Sequence record: LR597647
Strand: one strand, 5' to 3'
DNA from: Escherichia phage rV5_ev147
Length of the DNA stretch: 64,000 nt
Shown: piece after piece, positions 416 through 53,038 of the stretch
How the letters are laid out: every line of letters starts with the position of its first letter
Numbering within the stretch: the first letter of the stretch is position 1
Notes under the pieces: model-generated
Seen by the model: the letters and a program-made list of their open reading frames with translations, nothing else
What the model was told of the DNA's origin: nothing
The model's database searches: none
Translations under genes and position numbers: made by a program

Positions 416-766
416 CTAACCAGTTGTTGACATTCGAATAACTTCTTCTGGTGGCAAAACTTTGGAAAATGTGCATCTTTTACCTCTCCCTTGTGTGGAT
501 ATTTCAACCACTCCTGCACATTCTAAAGTTTTAACGCACGCTGCTGCTTTTGTTTTCTTTATCCCAATATCTGCTGCAATTTTCCTTGTGCTGGGCGTGA
601 AGCGTGAATTTCCTCCAAGCTTATACCAGTTGTGCAGGTAGCAGTATACGATCTTGTCATATAAGTCAAGAACAACAACCTCACCAGTTGTGTCATTCAA
701 AACTTTTGACATAGACAGTATTTCAAGGGGGACTTTAAGATATAGCAGCTTATCCCCATCTTTCAT
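416..766 (-). CDS. Putative helix-turn-helix DNA-binding protein
   Basis: ATG at 766 with AGGAG upstream; segment STRKIAADIGIKKTKAAACVKTLECAGVV resembles an HTH; lies next to the palindromic site array. Confidence 0.4.
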   Translation of the reverse strand: MKDGDKLLYLKVPLEILSMSKVLNDTTGEVVVLDLYDKIVYCYLHNWYKLGGNSRFTPSTRKIAADIGIKKTKAAACVKTLECAGVVEISTQGRGKRCTFSKVLPPEEVIRMSTTG

Positions 767-1886: not shown

Positions 1887-2822
1887 ATGACAAATGAGGA
1901 ACGTATGATGAAGTATTTTAATGCAGACGACCTAGTTGACAAAGGTCTTGTAACCAGCAGATATCACCCAGACCTTGGGTTAAAGATCTATAAATATGCC
2001 AGAAAAGTATTCTACAACAACTTATGGCATTTGTCTCCTCGATTACTGGAGTGCCGAGGCATTGTTGTCGGTAATGAAGGAAATGTTGTGGCATGGCCCT
2101 TTACAAAAGTGTTTAACTTGGGAGAAAATTCCACCAACCTGCCTGACAATAAGCTTGTGACGGCGGTAGAGAAAAAGAACGGATTCCTTGGTGTGGTGTC
2201 ATCTCATAAAGGTGAACTATTGTTCTCAACAACCGGGTCTCTTGATTCTCCATATTGTAACCTTGCAAAGGAAACCATCCAGGAGCAATGTGGTAATTTA
2301 GATCTTATCAAGAAGGTTATGGGCAATGAAAATATGACATTCATGTTTGAAATTTGTCACCCCTCAGATCCGCATATTGTTCAGGAAGATCATGGCGCAT
2401 ATTTGATAGGTTGCAGATATAATGATTCTGGAATAATGCTACCAGAAGCAGCTTTAGATGGGATTGCCAAATACCTTGGTGCAAAACGTCCTCACACTGT
2501 GCGTGAAATTCCGTTCAGTTATGCAAAAGAATTAGCTGCAGAAACAAGAGGTGAAGGGTATATGATTCGTAAGCCTTACTACCCTTATGATCTGCAGCTG
2601 AAGATTAAGTCTCCATACTATCTGGCACGGAAGGCCGTAATGAGGGGTAAAGCTTGGAAGATTTGGGATGATGATATCTTTAAACGTGTTGACGAAGAGT
2701 TTTACGGCATGGTAAACTTCATTCGTAACAACTACACAGAGGATGTATGGAACTGCCTCCTGGAGCAGGAACGCCGTGAGATACTCGATTACTATTTCCA
2801 CAACGAGAACTATATGCAATGA
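1887..2822 (+). CDS. Putative RNA ligase (Rnl2-like nucleotidyltransferase)
   Basis: Candidate motif I EKKNGF, motif IV EGYMIRK, motif V LKIKS; divergent from the kinase/phosphoesterase pair. Confidence 0.45.
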   Translation: MTNEERMMKYFNADDLVDKGLVTSRYHPDLGLKIYKYARKVFYNNLWHLSPRLLECRGIVVGNEGNVVAWPFTKVFNLGENSTNLPDNKLVTAVEKKNGFLGVVSSHKGELLFSTTGSLDSPYCNLAKETIQEQCGNLDLIKKVMGNENMTFMFEICHPSDPHIVQEDHGAYLIGCRYNDSGIMLPEAALDGIAKYLGAKRPHTVREIPFSYAKELAAETRGEGYMIRKPYYPYDLQLKIKSPYYLARKAVMRGKAWKIWDDDIFKRVDEEFYGMVNFIRNNYTEDVWNCLLEQERREILDYYFHNENYMQ

Positions 2823-3169
2823 AGAAGTTGATTGTGTGGCTAGATGACTTGAGAGATCCGTCAAAGTACGGGCTCCAAGACGCTGTTTGGCTAAAGAATT
2901 CCTCCGAGTTTATAGATTTTATTAACGATAATAGAAAGCTCTACAGACGCGTTTCTGAGTGGCATATGGACAACGACCTTGGAGAGGTATTCGAAGGGTA
3001 CGATTGCCTATCTATGTTGGAGGAAAAATTTGTATTTGGTAAGCCTCCTGTAGTTGACAACGTGAAGATTTTCGTGCATACTTCTAACCCATCAGCGGCT
3101 CGTAAATTCATGCTTGCAGCTGACTCGTTTAAAAAGTTTGGAATAGAGATTAAACAAAACATCTACTGA
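2819..3169 (+). CDS. Hypothetical protein, first gene of the Sir2 operon
   Basis: ORF overlaps the upstream stop (ATGA); 9 bp before the Sir2 gene; no motif recognised. Confidence 0.45.
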   Translation: MKKLIVWLDDLRDPSKYGLQDAVWLKNSSEFIDFINDNRKLYRRVSEWHMDNDLGEVFEGYDCLSMLEEKFVFGKPPVVDNVKIFVHTSNPSAARKFMLAADSFKKFGIEIKQNIY

Positions 3170-39120: not shown

Positions 39121-39336
39121 ATGAAGATAGAGATATTTGGTGGAGCTGACAACACTCGTGGCCTGATTTACCTTGAATTCGATGAATCATACCTGCCAGA
39201 GGTGTTAAATATAGACTCTGTTGCTGAGGCTTTGGGAGTAAACCCTAAAGAACTCCACTCTTGTGCTGAGATCGATGGTTGGGAAGAGACCATGAACATT
39301 GATTTCAGTGAAGTAGAGGATGAACCGCTGGACTGA
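39121..39336 (+). CDS. Hypothetical small acidic protein
   Basis: MKIEIFGG start, acidic tail; last + strand gene before the non-coding region. Confidence 0.4.
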   Translation: MKIEIFGGADNTRGLIYLEFDESYLPEVLNIDSVAEALGVNPKELHSCAEIDGWEETMNIDFSEVEDEPLD

Positions 39337-39463
39337 CACACAATTAGCTGCCCGGCTAAAGTGCTGGAAGCACCTATAACACATCTTTCAACTAAATTTC
39401 CTACCACCACAATCACTTACCTCCCACACATGACTGTTTGCTTGTTTAGTGAGCAGTCATGCC

Positions 39464-39491
39464 TTGACATTCTTGCCTATCCTGATAAAAT
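39464..39491 (+). promoter_or_regulatory. Sigma70-type promoter with extended -10 and overlapping 8-bp inverted repeat
   Basis: TTGACA (39464-39469), 16-bp spacer, TGaTAAAAT; CATGACTG...CAGTCATG palindrome just upstream; no ORF follows. Confidence 0.45.
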
Positions 39492-39497
39492 TAAGTT

Positions 39498-39775
39498 CTT
39501 CTCTTTTCTTTTACCGAGTAATTCGGGTTTTCTGTTCTCTTCGGTTTGAAGGGGTATAGAGATACACCTGAGTGAACAGGGTGAACAACCGAACCATTAG
39601 CTATGGCATTAGCATGGCGAAGCGGACGGGTGACGAAAGAGGGGCCGGAGGACACCAGTCACTGCCATATGATATATGGGTGATAACCTGAAGAGTCTGA
39701 ATAAGTGTTTAAGTACCAGTCAGAGGAAAAGGTGAATGGTAGCCGAAGGGGGGGAGGGGGGTTTCTTGTATCTTT
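39498..39775 (+). ncRNA. Candidate non-coding RNA ending in a G-rich tract
   Basis: About 280 nt downstream of a good promoter with no ORF; local hairpin CCGAGtaatTCGG; ends GGGGGGGAGGGGGGG + T-run. Confidence 0.25.
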
Positions 39776-40806
39776 AATTTGTATATTATGTATACACTTG
39801 TAAACCAATCTAATCTGAATCTGTTTACCACACAAAGCGGATAGAGACAAATATTGCCTATTAAACTTGAATTATTTATAGAAAATACCACAACACCCCT
39901 TAAGTCTTTGATTTTACACACAAATCCTACAGATATTCAACCTCCATATTTAACATACTTGTAACATATTCCATACTCTACCTGTCTGATCAATTTCCCC
40001 AACTACATTCTCATATTTTCCCTGTCTGTACTACCCCTGCCCCGCCGGGAGTCCCGTCATATCTGGCTTTCCAGCAAATATCACACCCACAAATATCATT
40101 GCCTGAAGAGGGTTTCATCCCATAATACCTGCCTTACCTGAAGAGCGCTTCATACACCACGTAAATTTTTTAATTGACCTCCCCCTGCCCCGCCGGAGAG
40201 GTTGGCTTTTCCCACACAGACCTGAAGAGTCAGCCAGAAATATCTGAATAGGCCCAATTCTACCACGATTTTGACCTGACCTACAGGGAGGCCCGAAGGG
40301 TCTAGCTTTCAGCTAGAGTCCTTGCAGGACCTACAGGAGCGCTGCCAGGCGGACGGAATGGGAATACTTCTCATTCTTATAACAATTCTCAAATATCGAG
40401 GCAGTGAGAGAAATTAATAGGCCAGGCCGTTCACACAGTGGCACAACATTTGCAACCTATTTTGTGTGGATGAATGAGAATACCTATCATTGTGAGAACT
40501 GTTATCATTACGGGCAATTTAACATAATACCCATTATGCGCACCACTGGCGATACATACAAGGATTGATAACATGAGTTACAGTTTACGCATATAACAAT
40601 CATATTTCTTACTATTTGTGTGGGATATAGTTAGCAGCCAATAGATTAGATATTGACCTGCGGACTTCCAACCGTCTAGACGTCTAAACGCCCACACAAC
40701 AAGGATTATACATACATTACTGAATGTAAACAGGACCGCAAAAATGCTACCATACCAGTTTGTAAATTTTTCATGCAGCACTTGACAAAGAGGAGGAAAA
40801 CTTGTC

Positions 40807-40852
40807 TGACATAATGGTGACATAACTGACACGATTGACATAATTGACATGC
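40807..40852. repeat. Five tandem TGACA(T/C)(A/G) boxes at about 10-bp phasing
   Basis: TGACATAA at 40807, 40818, 40836 and variants at 40827, 40845. Confidence 0.7.
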
Positions 40853-40936
40853 CTGACTGTTCACGCTCTCATTATTCCCGCCCTTACTATTCACGCCCTT
40901 TACTGCTTACATTCTTGATAGTCTACATGCTTAATG

Positions 40937-40992
40937 GTTTACATGACTAATAGTTTACATAGCTAACTGTTTACGCATAAACTGTTTACACA
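40937..40992. repeat. Four GTTTAC(A/G) iteron-like repeats at 15-16 bp spacing
   Basis: GTTTACATG 40937, GTTTACATA 40953, GTTTACGCA 40969, GTTTACACA 40984. Confidence 0.7.
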
Positions 40993-41002
40993 GATATGAT
41001 AA

Positions 41003-41302
41003 GCCATGCCATTCGTTTGCATGATAACAATAACGATCAACAACAATAAAGACTGAAATGATAACGTTGTTGATTTGACTGACTAACAATTAACAGGCTA
41101 ATAATCTATGACATAATATAAAAGCAGGGCAACTATTAGCAGATCTATAGTTGCCTTGCTTGTTATGTCATGATTAACTAAATACAAGGCAACTATGATC
41201 TGATTAATAGTTTGCAGACAAACTATCACGGGGGTGATGGTTACTGCTTTTATATTATGTCGCGACTCCGTCGCGCCATGCCATTCGTTTGCATAGTTGC
41301 CT
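41003..41302. repeat. Composite repeat locus: 20-bp direct repeat, 18-bp inverted repeat and GGCAACTAT palindromes
   Basis: GCCATGCCATTCGTTTGCAT at 41003 and 41275; GACATAATATAAAAGCAG (41110) with exact reverse complement at 41244; GGCAACTAT/ATAGTTGCC palindrome at 41128-41155. Confidence 0.75.
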
Positions 41303-41955
41303 TATTGTTACAGATAAAATAATTGTATTGTTAATTATTTCTTATCTTTCTATTAGTCATCTAATGATTCCAGTTAGTATAGTAACGTACAGTAAACATT
41401 AGACGACTAAAGATTTCTCTGATTATGATAACTTGCCGTGACAATTTCAGACTGTTTACGAAAAATGTTGACACCTGAGCTGATTTATGTTATGCAATTT
41501 AAACGAATAATTATTTTATGCAGGTATTGACTATTCTGTTATTCTATGGTCGGAATAAATACTTAGCAGGCTATAGAATGGTGAGCGTACGTAAATTCTG
41601 AGATCTGTCGGCTATAGTTATACTCGATTTTTCACGTAGAACACGCTTTTTGGTTTGTGTAAGTGTATGACTTATAAAGATTTTTAGTTGTTGACAAGAT
41701 ATTGAAGATGTGCATCAGGTTAAATTTTGTGCAATAGCTGCATTACGTGCAATTTTGGAAGGAAAACGGGTAAAAATAGCACCGCTACCACACAATGAAA
41801 GGTTATGCAATAGTTATTTTACATGTATATTTGTACAGTGTGTGGGATTGATGGCTCGTCAATTATTCCACTTGCCAGGTAGGGCCGTTTATGGTAGGGA
41901 GGAAGAGCAGACAAAAAGAAAGGGACCTAAGCCCCTTGATAATTCAGTTAAAAAA

Positions 41956-42375
41956 TTATAATGATTCGTATATTTCAAAAATCCGATTTGCCAGGTCGTT
42001 ACGGTACCGGAATTTTTCATCACGTTTGATCATAAGATCTTTATAGCCGTACTCTTTAAGCACTTCATTAACTTTATGGCGGCACACCTTCATATTATCC
42101 TGAGCGTCACCAATAAACCTGTTGCTATGGTGCATGGCTTTAATTTCTTCTTCCAGGACCAGGGCAACTATGCGGACCGGATCAAGCTGATAGGCGGTAA
42201 CATCCATGCGGCATTGTAAACGGCTTTTTACGTCTGCCACCGGATATACTGCAACCTCTTCCCCGTCAACATTGACAATAATTAGTTTACCATCGATTTC
42301 GAATCCTTTCGCCGCCGGACCGTGACAAAAAGCGTTATCAAAGCTATATGCCGGATTATTAGATTTAATGTTCAT
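41956..42375 (-). CDS. Hypothetical protein
   Basis: 139-aa ORF with minus-strand promoter 42424-42452 and SD upstream. Confidence 0.45.
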   Translation of the reverse strand: MNIKSNNPAYSFDNAFCHGPAAKGFEIDGKLIIVNVDGEEVAVYPVADVKSRLQCRMDVTAYQLDPVRIVALVLEEEIKAMHHSNRFIGDAQDNMKVCRHKVNEVLKEYGYKDLMIKRDEKFRYRNDLANRIFEIYESL

Positions 42376-52022: not shown

Positions 52023-52239
52023 TTTTGTACCTCCTCTTCAATTGTTACCTATCCTATAGCATAGGCCCACCAGGTTTGCAAGCCTTCATTCTCTCCTACC
52101 TGGTCAGTTAGGTCCTGCCAGGCTGGCCCCGCCAGGTTGCAGCGGTCAGCGCATCAGGTTAGAAAAATTTTTTTGAAAAGTGTTGACAGCGGCCCCGCCA
52201 GGTGGCACAATATACCTATCGAAAGGACGGCAGGCACCG

Positions 52240-52440
52240 GTGACGGGGAGACAACCACCGGGGATGGGCGCTGCATAAAATGAGAACGGTTATCATTATC
52301 GTCTAAAAATTTATGCAAAAACTTCTTGCTTTCTTTGTCCTGTGTGTTACTATAATAACAAGCCGGGGCAGTAGGGGCCGGGAGACAATCACCGGGGGTG
52401 CCCGTTATTCTGCAAACGAGAATGATTATCATTCAAAATT
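52240..52440. repeat. Two tandem diverged GC-rich units, each followed by an ATGAGAA/GAGAATGA box
   Basis: GGGGAGACAACCACCGGGG (about 52248) and GGGAGACAATCACCGGGGG (about 52383), each followed by ...TGAGAA...TTATCATT; ATGAGAActtttCTCATTTC hairpin at about 52445. Confidence 0.6.
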
Positions 52441-52566
52441 CTAAATGAGAACTTTTCTCATTTCATAAATTTAGTTAGCATGCTAATTACCTACCGTGAC
52501 AATTCTATATAAAATAATACCTCCTAAAATATTTCCATATACAAATTTTAAAAATCCATTTCCGAA

Positions 52567-52718
52567 AACGAAAAATCGCTTTCGTTCCCAAAAATTTTAG
52601 ACCTGGTGCTGGACCAATTTCAAGAAAATCCGATTCAGAAAACGAAAAACAGATCGAGTACTGAGAAGTTTATCGAGAAAAATTTTCAGAAAATTCAATC
52701 TTTGAAACGAAAAACAGA
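52567..52718. repeat. GAAAACGAAAAA direct repeats in a non-coding stretch
   Basis: GAAAACGAAAAACAGATCGAGTAC at about 52637 and 52695 (24 bp, exact); related GAAAACGAAAAATCGCTTTCGTT palindrome at about 52567. Confidence 0.6.
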
Positions 52719-53038
52719 TCGAGTACCTAGAAAGCTGCACCGCAATTTCAAGATGGTGGTTAGATTATTACCATAAAAGGTCAAGGGTGAGTGGGAAAGT
52801 TCTGGTAGAGGGGTGTGAGCATACGCGGAAAATCTAGAATGGTAGTCCGGAATATGGTGCAAACGATAGGATGAGTGGTTCAGCTCGTCGTGCCTACTCT
52901 GAAAAAATCCATTTTAGTTTTCGATCCATTTTCTGATTTTCTAACAATTTTAAAATATCTGGCCGGGTGAAATATCAAAAGGAGGAAATCCATTTTAGAA
53001 ATCCTCCTTATACTTGATATGTCAGAAATTTTCAAGTA

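Follow-up and report, generated by a model that had tools for sequence, protein, structure and literature searches.

The junction DNA of phages T7 and T3 is packaged by the terminase gp18/gp19. At headful packaging (pac) sites such as those of SPP1 and P22, binding boxes of the small terminase flank the cut, and the ends are permuted and terminally redundant, without an exact fixed repeat. Here we compare with these systems a gene-free, repeat-dense region between convergent genes of Escherichia phage rV5_ev147 (genus Vequintavirus), located in the 64,000-nucleotide stretch that was analysed as a whole (the window; sequence record LR597647), whose numbering is used throughout.

In T3 and T7, packaging specificity lies within 5% of the termini and pausing of the RNA polymerase at the junction starts maturation (PMC3276506). 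Short direct terminal repeats (DTRs) occur in rV5-like and phi92-like myoviruses: 458 bp in EdH4 and HdK5 (the terminal redundancy given in their source study, Korf et al., PMC6563267), 514 in KPP-1, 342 in BME3 and 328 in Schickermooser. That of KPP-1, a Klebsiella phage of the genus Mydovirus, was recognised by twofold read coverage and is T7-like according to PhageTerm (PMC9862379). The DTR length is already published, several GenBank records are oriented on it, and the junction type is well known from T7. The DTR papers give the repeat length only, and in the papers searched we found no description of the boundary motifs, of the arrays at the DTR edges or of the two hypervariable zones presented below; nor did a literature search find a Vequintavirus transcriptome or a description of this region. 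The rV5 genome paper shows the stretch as a grey "non-coding" box, without assigned function (PMC3606486). In most Vequintavirus records, including the present one, the start point is arbitrary and the stretch is either unannotated or filled with spurious small open reading frames (ORFs). Judging from sequence comparison, the region is probably the Vequintavirus concatemer junction, where replicated DNA would be cut into virion chromosomes. What homology shows is where the ends lie, the DTR itself, the conserved contexts at its boundaries, the arrays of variable size that flank it, and the terminators.

The convergent gap and the probable chromosome ends

According to the ORF list and the record annotation, the gene-free region extends over 2,619 bp (39337..41955) between two convergent transcription units: the + strand gene before it (rV5 ORF163) stops at 39336 and the - strand gene after it (rV5 ORF164) occupies 41956..42375. 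An earlier note, made from the sequence alone, had seen no convincing ORF in about 2 kb of this DNA, and this holds, since the six small ORFs inside the gap (54-90 aa) have no match to a PHROG family while both flanking genes do match.

The chromosome ends and the DTR were placed on this phage by homology with the records of relatives. Records with experimentally determined ends break within the region, always at the same two bases. Those of EdH4 and HdK5 contain an exact 459-bp repeat at both ends, which starts at window position 40348 and stops at 40806; they open with GGCGGACG (40348) and close with AAAACTTGTC (40806), and their DTR is the same element as here, with 92-98% identity. The records bov10K2, bov11CS3, bov22_2, bov25_3 and YN3 all begin at 40348, and the termini of the four bov phages were typed with PhageTerm in their source study (PMC8407724). 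The bov11CS3 record stops at 40347 and therefore holds a single repeat copy; the rV5_ev156 record also has one copy of the 459-bp repeat. Finally, ECP2303, Pr121LW and EcoIv14a_Aya stop at 40806. Eleven listed records from several laboratories begin or stop exactly at one of these two positions. Because the record ends of relatives coincide there, we interpret the 459 bp at 40348..40806 as the DTR of the packaged chromosome, whose left end would be base 40348 and whose right end base 40806, and the convergence point as the concatemer junction. In the resulting layout, one reads from the left end (40348) through the arrays into the - strand gene block, while the + strand gene block leads up to the right end (40806). 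The earlier note had left the choice between a replication origin, a partition site and a packaging site; the last option gains support, as the virion ends map to 40348 and 40806 and the phased arrays abut the right end of the DTR.

Both boundaries lie in conserved contexts, GGAGYGCTGCCA/GGCGGACG at the left cut site and CTTGACAAAGAG..AAAACTTGTC/TGACA on the right (the slash marks the boundary). Each cut position is also the centre of a short palindrome (GCC-A-GGC on the left, TGTC-T-GACA on the right), but KPP-1 does not conserve them and they were given no weight. The record of phage I29 (stretch 770-1909) presents a 546-bp duplication joined via a 120-bp inverted segment amid the DTR region; the extra ~500 bp most likely arose when the chromosome ends were misassembled and were left out of the analysis.

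The region is 100% identical to that of Escherichia phage rV5_ev156 (LR694165.1; window position = record position - 64,000), and a sequence search matched it to a further 120 Vequintavirus records at 90-99% identity. A distant blastn search with the core of the region returned Vequintavirus records only, without deeper DNA homologues, and an IMG/VR scan with a 26-mer from the DTR gave 2 loci only; the same kind of scan with a degenerate right-boundary motif produced more than 100 evidently random matches and was dropped as too unspecific. No Rfam match was obtained for the whole window at gathering thresholds or for 39300-42000 at E <= 1, and a search for tRNA and tmRNA genes found none.

Repeats and variable zones around the terminal repeat

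An alignment of 17 genomes (this phage and 16 relatives), read as identity in 50-nt bins, shows 94-100% identity for 39250-40249; the values are 92-98% within the DTR and 88-97% for 41150-41899. Each edge of the DTR is abutted exactly by a hypervariable zone (40250-40347 and 40807-41100), where mean bin identity drops to 53-71% (left edge, 40250-40349) and 20-71% (right edge, 40800-41099). The repeats listed in the earlier note were checked on the sequence: all are present, with a few coordinates off by 1-10 bases. That note had regarded absence of the repeats from close relatives as evidence against its proposal; the comparison was run, and every kind of repeat was found in 16/16 relatives, except that FV3 is without 41003-41274.

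Immediately to the right of the DTR, from its first following base onward, five TGACAYR boxes (consensus unit TGACATAAT) occupy 40807..40851 on the + strand at 9-11-bp spacing; they start at 40807, 40818, 40827, 40836 and 40845 (spacing 11, 9, 9 and 9), in agreement with the five TGACA(T/C)(A/G) boxes at about 10-bp phasing reported before. The motif is present in the window at the level of chance (42 copies for 38 expected), and the five copies in 45 bp on one strand are its only such cluster. Next come nine TRTTYAC-type units at 15-16-bp spacing (40853..40992, + strand). The four GTTTAC iterons previously noticed at 15-16 bp (40937, 40953, 40969 and 40984; spacing 16, 16 and 15) are real but undercounted, being the last four of these nine units. 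The repeats, described before as "helically phased iterons", are phased, but periods of 15-16 bp (1.5 turns) or 9 bp are out of phase with the helix. In 16/16 relatives, a TGACA box stands immediately after CTTGTC, with 1-7 boxes at 9-11-bp spacing, and the TRTTYAC units, 1-8 in number, preserve the 15-16-bp spacing: the kind, position and phasing of the arrays are kept but not their copy number. Behind the arrays stands the 20-bp repeat, which is conserved in the relatives; the module that succeeds it differs between genomes and is in many of them a + strand terminator (CACCCCTTCGGGTGTTTCT).

The left flank, i.e. the right-end unique side of the junction, carries other repeats on the + strand. 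Four CCTGAAGAG boxes lie in 39687..40229, at 39687, 40102, 40137 and 40221, consistent with the four copies previously placed at 39677-40230; the motif has 8 copies in the window for 0.47 expected, the other four being Pro-Glu-Glu codons within genes, and a related CCTGAAGTGTCAGCC was found in the equivalent flank of KPP-1. The C-rich 15-mer CCCCTGCCCCGCCGG is present twice, as announced, at the corrected positions 40034 and 40182, and its copies (40034..40196) bracket two AAATATCAY boxes (40076 and 40091). In this phage (40076, 40091 and 40391) as in KPP-1 (stretch 1915, 1932 and 2060), AAATATCAY boxes flank the left DTR boundary on either side, and the BME3 DTR has a similar AAATATCAA 44 bp from its edge. 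The left hypervariable zone that abuts the DTR (40250..40347, delimited by the alignment and ending in the context GGAGYGCTGCCA/GGCGGACG) includes an optional 50-nt module of three hairpins (~40281-40330) flanked by 9-10-bp direct repeats, CCTACAGG[GA]AG. This module is found in 31 of ~120 Vequintavirus records, never in more than one copy and never at another locus, which rules out the mobile element that we had considered; in the bov phages its middle hairpin is flipped (TTTC loop to GAAA).

Inside the DTR, a motif scan located a tandem pair of Fur-box-like half-palindromes, GAGAAY-N3-TATCATT, with an 18-bp period (40471..40512, + strand), which the navn and Alma records annotate as a repeat_region. 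The general form of this palindrome, GAKAAY-N3-TATCATT, has AATGA..TCATT halves 3 or 9 nt apart and is enriched in this window (5 matches for 0.26 expected), in KPP-1 (8 for 0.02) and in BME3 (5 for 0.07). It occurs in the DTR or junction of these three genera, at 40360-40512 in the window, at 2417-3160 of the KPP-1 stretch and at 53-1235 of the BME3 stretch. The motif is found again in a second intergenic region of this phage (52279-52462), within a stretch at ~52030-53030 that has no annotated-looking gene and where GC and AT skew are locally reversed. This stretch holds two tandem units, each of which combines a sigma-70-like promoter with ~60 nt of GC-rich DNA full of hairpins and with a Fur-box-like palindrome; it has no Rfam match, and megablast also matches it to a few Enterobacter, Serratia and Acinetobacter phage records.

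We infer that the terminase would recognise and nick both boundary contexts and that, by analogy with packaging of the T7 type, strand-displacement synthesis would then produce the second copy of the DTR. Accessory roles, in protein binding or DNA architecture, may fall to the two arrays on one side (TGACAYAAT and TRTTYAC) and to the three kinds of box on the opposite side (CCTGAAGAG, C-rich and AAATATCAY); they would then match the short-repeat arrays beside the T7 terminal repeat, their dosage presumably not being critical. Rightward read-through would traverse the junction before it met either of the two + strand terminators, which are both placed beyond the right edge of the DTR; speculatively, this recalls the junction transcription of T7. 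We give only a slim chance to the further idea that the hypervariable arrays at the DTR edges could be a recognition code of the small terminase, whose rapid turnover among co-circulating, otherwise 95%-identical Vequintaviruses would adjust the specificity of packaging and thereby prevent cross-packaging in mixed infections, or to the related one that, through the Fur-box-like palindromes, a host regulator (Fur, for example) could act on the processing of the ends or on transcription close to them. In rV5, the terminase large subunit, ORF64ABC (NC_011041 58027-60872, outside the window), is annotated in three joined pieces, which suggests intervening sequences.

Several points weigh against a concatemer junction at this place. 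The ends of rV5_ev156 are assigned by homology, the 25 bases of the left boundary being equal to those of EdH4 and the right boundary differing by 1 base, and the starts of records may partly reflect a conventional reorientation rather than measured ends. One study, which assembled a Vequintavirus out of a phage cocktail, inferred headful packaging with partial permutation for it (PMC13211470), and members of Certrevirus, in the same subfamily, were reported as circularly permuted (PMC7344957). As regards the arrays, the viable phages bov11CS3 and navn carry one TRTTYAC unit, KPP-1 shows no obvious array after its DTR, and the arrays, which are no more than candidate sites for terminase binding, could be tolerated slippage products beside recombinogenic ends.

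Terminators, promoters and rival explanations

The right part of the gap contains an exact 20-bp direct repeat, GCCATGCCATTCGTTTGCAT, at 41003-41022 and 41275-41294 (+ strand), as the earlier note had stated, and its two copies (41003..41294) bracket a 272-bp cassette. FV3 has one copy of this repeat (FV3 stretch position 1711) and a clean deletion of 272 bp (41003-41274) that takes away the double-terminator palindrome; the cassette is therefore dispensable in the FV3 record. The palindrome is framed by an exact 18-bp inverted repeat (41110-41127 and 41244-41261), and GGCAACTAT occurs at 41128(+), 41147(-), 41188(+) and 41293(-), with 6 copies in the window for 0.45 expected. As single-stranded DNA, this 150-nt palindrome (41110-41261) folds far beyond shuffled sequences (z = -9.3), and sliding RNA-folding z-scores on both strands designate it as the only strongly structured segment of the region. 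A rho-independent terminator for leftward transcription lies at 41110..41161 (- strand; stem 41122-41161, arms GGCAACTAT and ATAGTTGCC): its 15-bp stem is followed by TTTTATATTAT, a hairpin and U-run in which the left arm of the inverted repeat serves as the U-tail, and it is annotated independently in the Murica and Alma records, where it maps to 41124-41164. For rightward transcription, a terminator scan found a second hairpin and U-run at 41221..41261 (+ strand; stem 41221-41242), whose tail ACTGCTTTTATATT begins at ~41243 and extends into the right arm. Two rho-independent terminators thus converge and overlap here, and their U-tails are what makes up the 18-bp inverted repeat. Both this repeat and the GGCAACTAT palindromes are present and fold strongly, as the earlier note supposed, but they are largely explained by these terminators; the palindrome would insulate the flanking transcription units from each other. 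A further terminator, that of the ORF164 transcription unit, was found by the same scan at 41920..41937 (- strand) and is also annotated in Murica and Alma. On the other side of the gap, a promoter scan revealed an orphan sigma-70-type promoter at 39464..39491 (+ strand; TTGACA, 16-nt spacer, TAAAAT and an upstream TG, 11/12 matches). It has a near-consensus extended -10, lies 130 bp beyond the last + strand gene and is directed toward the DTR, with no gene downstream and with a weak hairpin and T-run behind it at 39514-39535; across the 16 relatives, conservation reaches 99-100% in the surrounding 50-nt bins (39400-39549).

These features also bear on what else the region could be. As an iteron-type replication origin, it would have a phage initiator binding the phased TGACAYR or TRTTYAC units and melting the neighbouring AT-rich or cruciform DNA, and the phased direct repeats, the strongly folding 150-nt palindrome, the several sigma-70-like sites that could provide activating transcription and the change of cumulative GC skew at this place can all be cited for it, together with the AT-richest 100 bp of the region (41300..41399, 24% G+C by base composition). 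This DNA is, however, ~300 bp from the arrays; array units fall to 1 in viable relatives, the palindrome cassette, and with it the cruciform element, is missing from FV3, and there is no cluster of DnaA boxes in the region. At its turn the cumulative skew has a maximum, as a terminus would, and the turn falls where the gene orientation changes (PMC3606486); in rV5, the skew change at 104425-105475 was indeed ascribed to the switch in transcription direction (PMC3606486). In addition, the sole initiator-like gene is ~40 kb away and has sites of its own, unrelated to the arrays. This - strand gene (416..766) encodes a 116-aa winged-helix protein that matches Pfam HTH_36 at cutoff and PHROG 12838 ("replication initiation protein"), and it corresponds to rV5 ORF79, which is likewise named replication initiation in the rV5 RefSeq record. 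About 75 bp past its stop lie four dyad-symmetric TGTCCG-N5-CGGACA sites (260, 282, 303 and 324) at 21-22-bp spacing (4 matches for 0.04 expected), an array that is kept in rV5 and is preceded by a ~45-bp run of ~90% A+T (214-257); no TGTCCG-N5-CGGACA site, as would be expected for a cognate initiator, lies within the gap. An origin in the gap, as the earlier note had envisaged, is accordingly not supported and we consider it improbable, the segment 214-340 being a better, lambda-ori-like candidate on sequence grounds. The partition-site option has no support either and is irrelevant to a lytic phage.

Transcription offers two other explanations. The region could be transcriptional punctuation only, made of convergent terminators and orphan promoters, with the arrays as neutral, slippage-prone DNA beside recombinogenic ends; this would suit the terminators on both strands, the hypervariability of arrays that are nearly lost in some genomes and the presence of the 50-nt hairpin module in some genomes and not in others. 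It is nevertheless unlikely, given that 16/16 relatives keep the first TGACA box at the DTR edge and the 15-16-bp phasing, that the succession of DTR and array is also seen in the unrelated phages BME3 and T7, and that ~900 bp on the left and 600 bp on the right are 88-100% conserved without coding capacity. Still more doubtful, to the point of being very improbable, is that the region encodes one or more non-coding RNAs, transcribed from the promoter at 39464 or from the TGACATAAT array to the + strand terminator at 41221-41258. That promoter is strong, conserved and without a gene downstream, the TGACATAAT units make overlapping -35/-10-like pairs, + strand terminators lie downstream, and three 120-nt segments of the + strand, starting at 39340, 39380 and 39500 (39340-39619), have folding z-scores between about -2.9 and -3.6; yet the predicted transcript 39495-39780 folds like shuffled sequences (z = -0.75), Rfam gives no match even at E <= 1, the array part is too variable for a conserved RNA, and the relatives are too similar for a covariation test.

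Among the records that match the region, 19 are labelled "Campylobacter phage" (at least 92% identity among the matches listed). One of these, A142, is flagged UNVERIFIED and classified as Vequintavirus; EI-SP-GF, a non-Campylobacter UNVERIFIED_ORG record, is likewise flagged as unverified. The host label "Campylobacter" on such Vequintavirus-matching records looks wrong.

Comparison with described junctions and origins

If the region is the concatemer junction, as we favour, placing the true ends here gives the correct orientation of the genome and explains the 2.6-kb "non-coding" box of the rV5 paper. The conserved boundary motifs and the flanking arrays become candidates for packaging signals, which would be useful for engineering broad-host-range phages for therapy or biocontrol and for judging the risk of transduction. 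The search for the origin is redirected to the other, more canonical site. A lambda-type origin, located within the initiator gene or next to it, consists of four dyad-symmetric iterons and an AT-rich segment; the arrays of the gap resemble it by their phased direct repeats and nearby AT-rich DNA, but they have no adjacent initiator gene and their copy number is not maintained, and the lambda-like layout is instead found at 214-340.

Among the myoviruses with short DTRs, that of KPP-1 has the same convergent, gene-free position as here and related boundary contexts: TGCTA/GACGGAC for TGCCA/GGCGGAC here on the left and CTTGACAAGGAGAGAGAATTGTGT for CTTGACAAAGAGGAGGAAAACTTGTC here on the right. 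The similarity between the two DTRs is weak and mostly collinear, with an enrichment of shared 9-mers (54 versus 29 +/- 7 in shuffles). In BME3, which is phi92-like, the ~342-bp DTR is directly followed by four CAACAAATA boxes. With pac sites, the junction shares repeated boxes on either side of the cleavage position, but here the ends are probably fixed.

The closest likeness in layout is with T7, through a short exact direct repeat at ends that are probably fixed here too, a gene-free junction and a phased short-repeat array near the inner edge of the repeat. In the T7 sequence itself, which we checked, the terminal repeat occupies 1-160 and CCTAAAG-type arrays with a 13-bp period follow at 174-340, within ~14 bp of the repeat; the function of these arrays is not firmly established. 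The gene-less promoter phiOL is located at 405, after the arrays, and an orphan promoter near the junction is thus common to both phages. The differences concern the repeat, which is 160 bp in T7 and 459 bp here and unrelated in sequence, and the arrays, which form two classes here (9-11 bp and 15-16 bp), unlike in T7. Furthermore, the present phage is a 136-kb myovirus without a phage RNA polymerase, and its flanking genes are transcribed toward the ends, whereas T7 genes all run from left to right. The comparison reveals no new kind of system: the junction proposed here is of the type known from T7.

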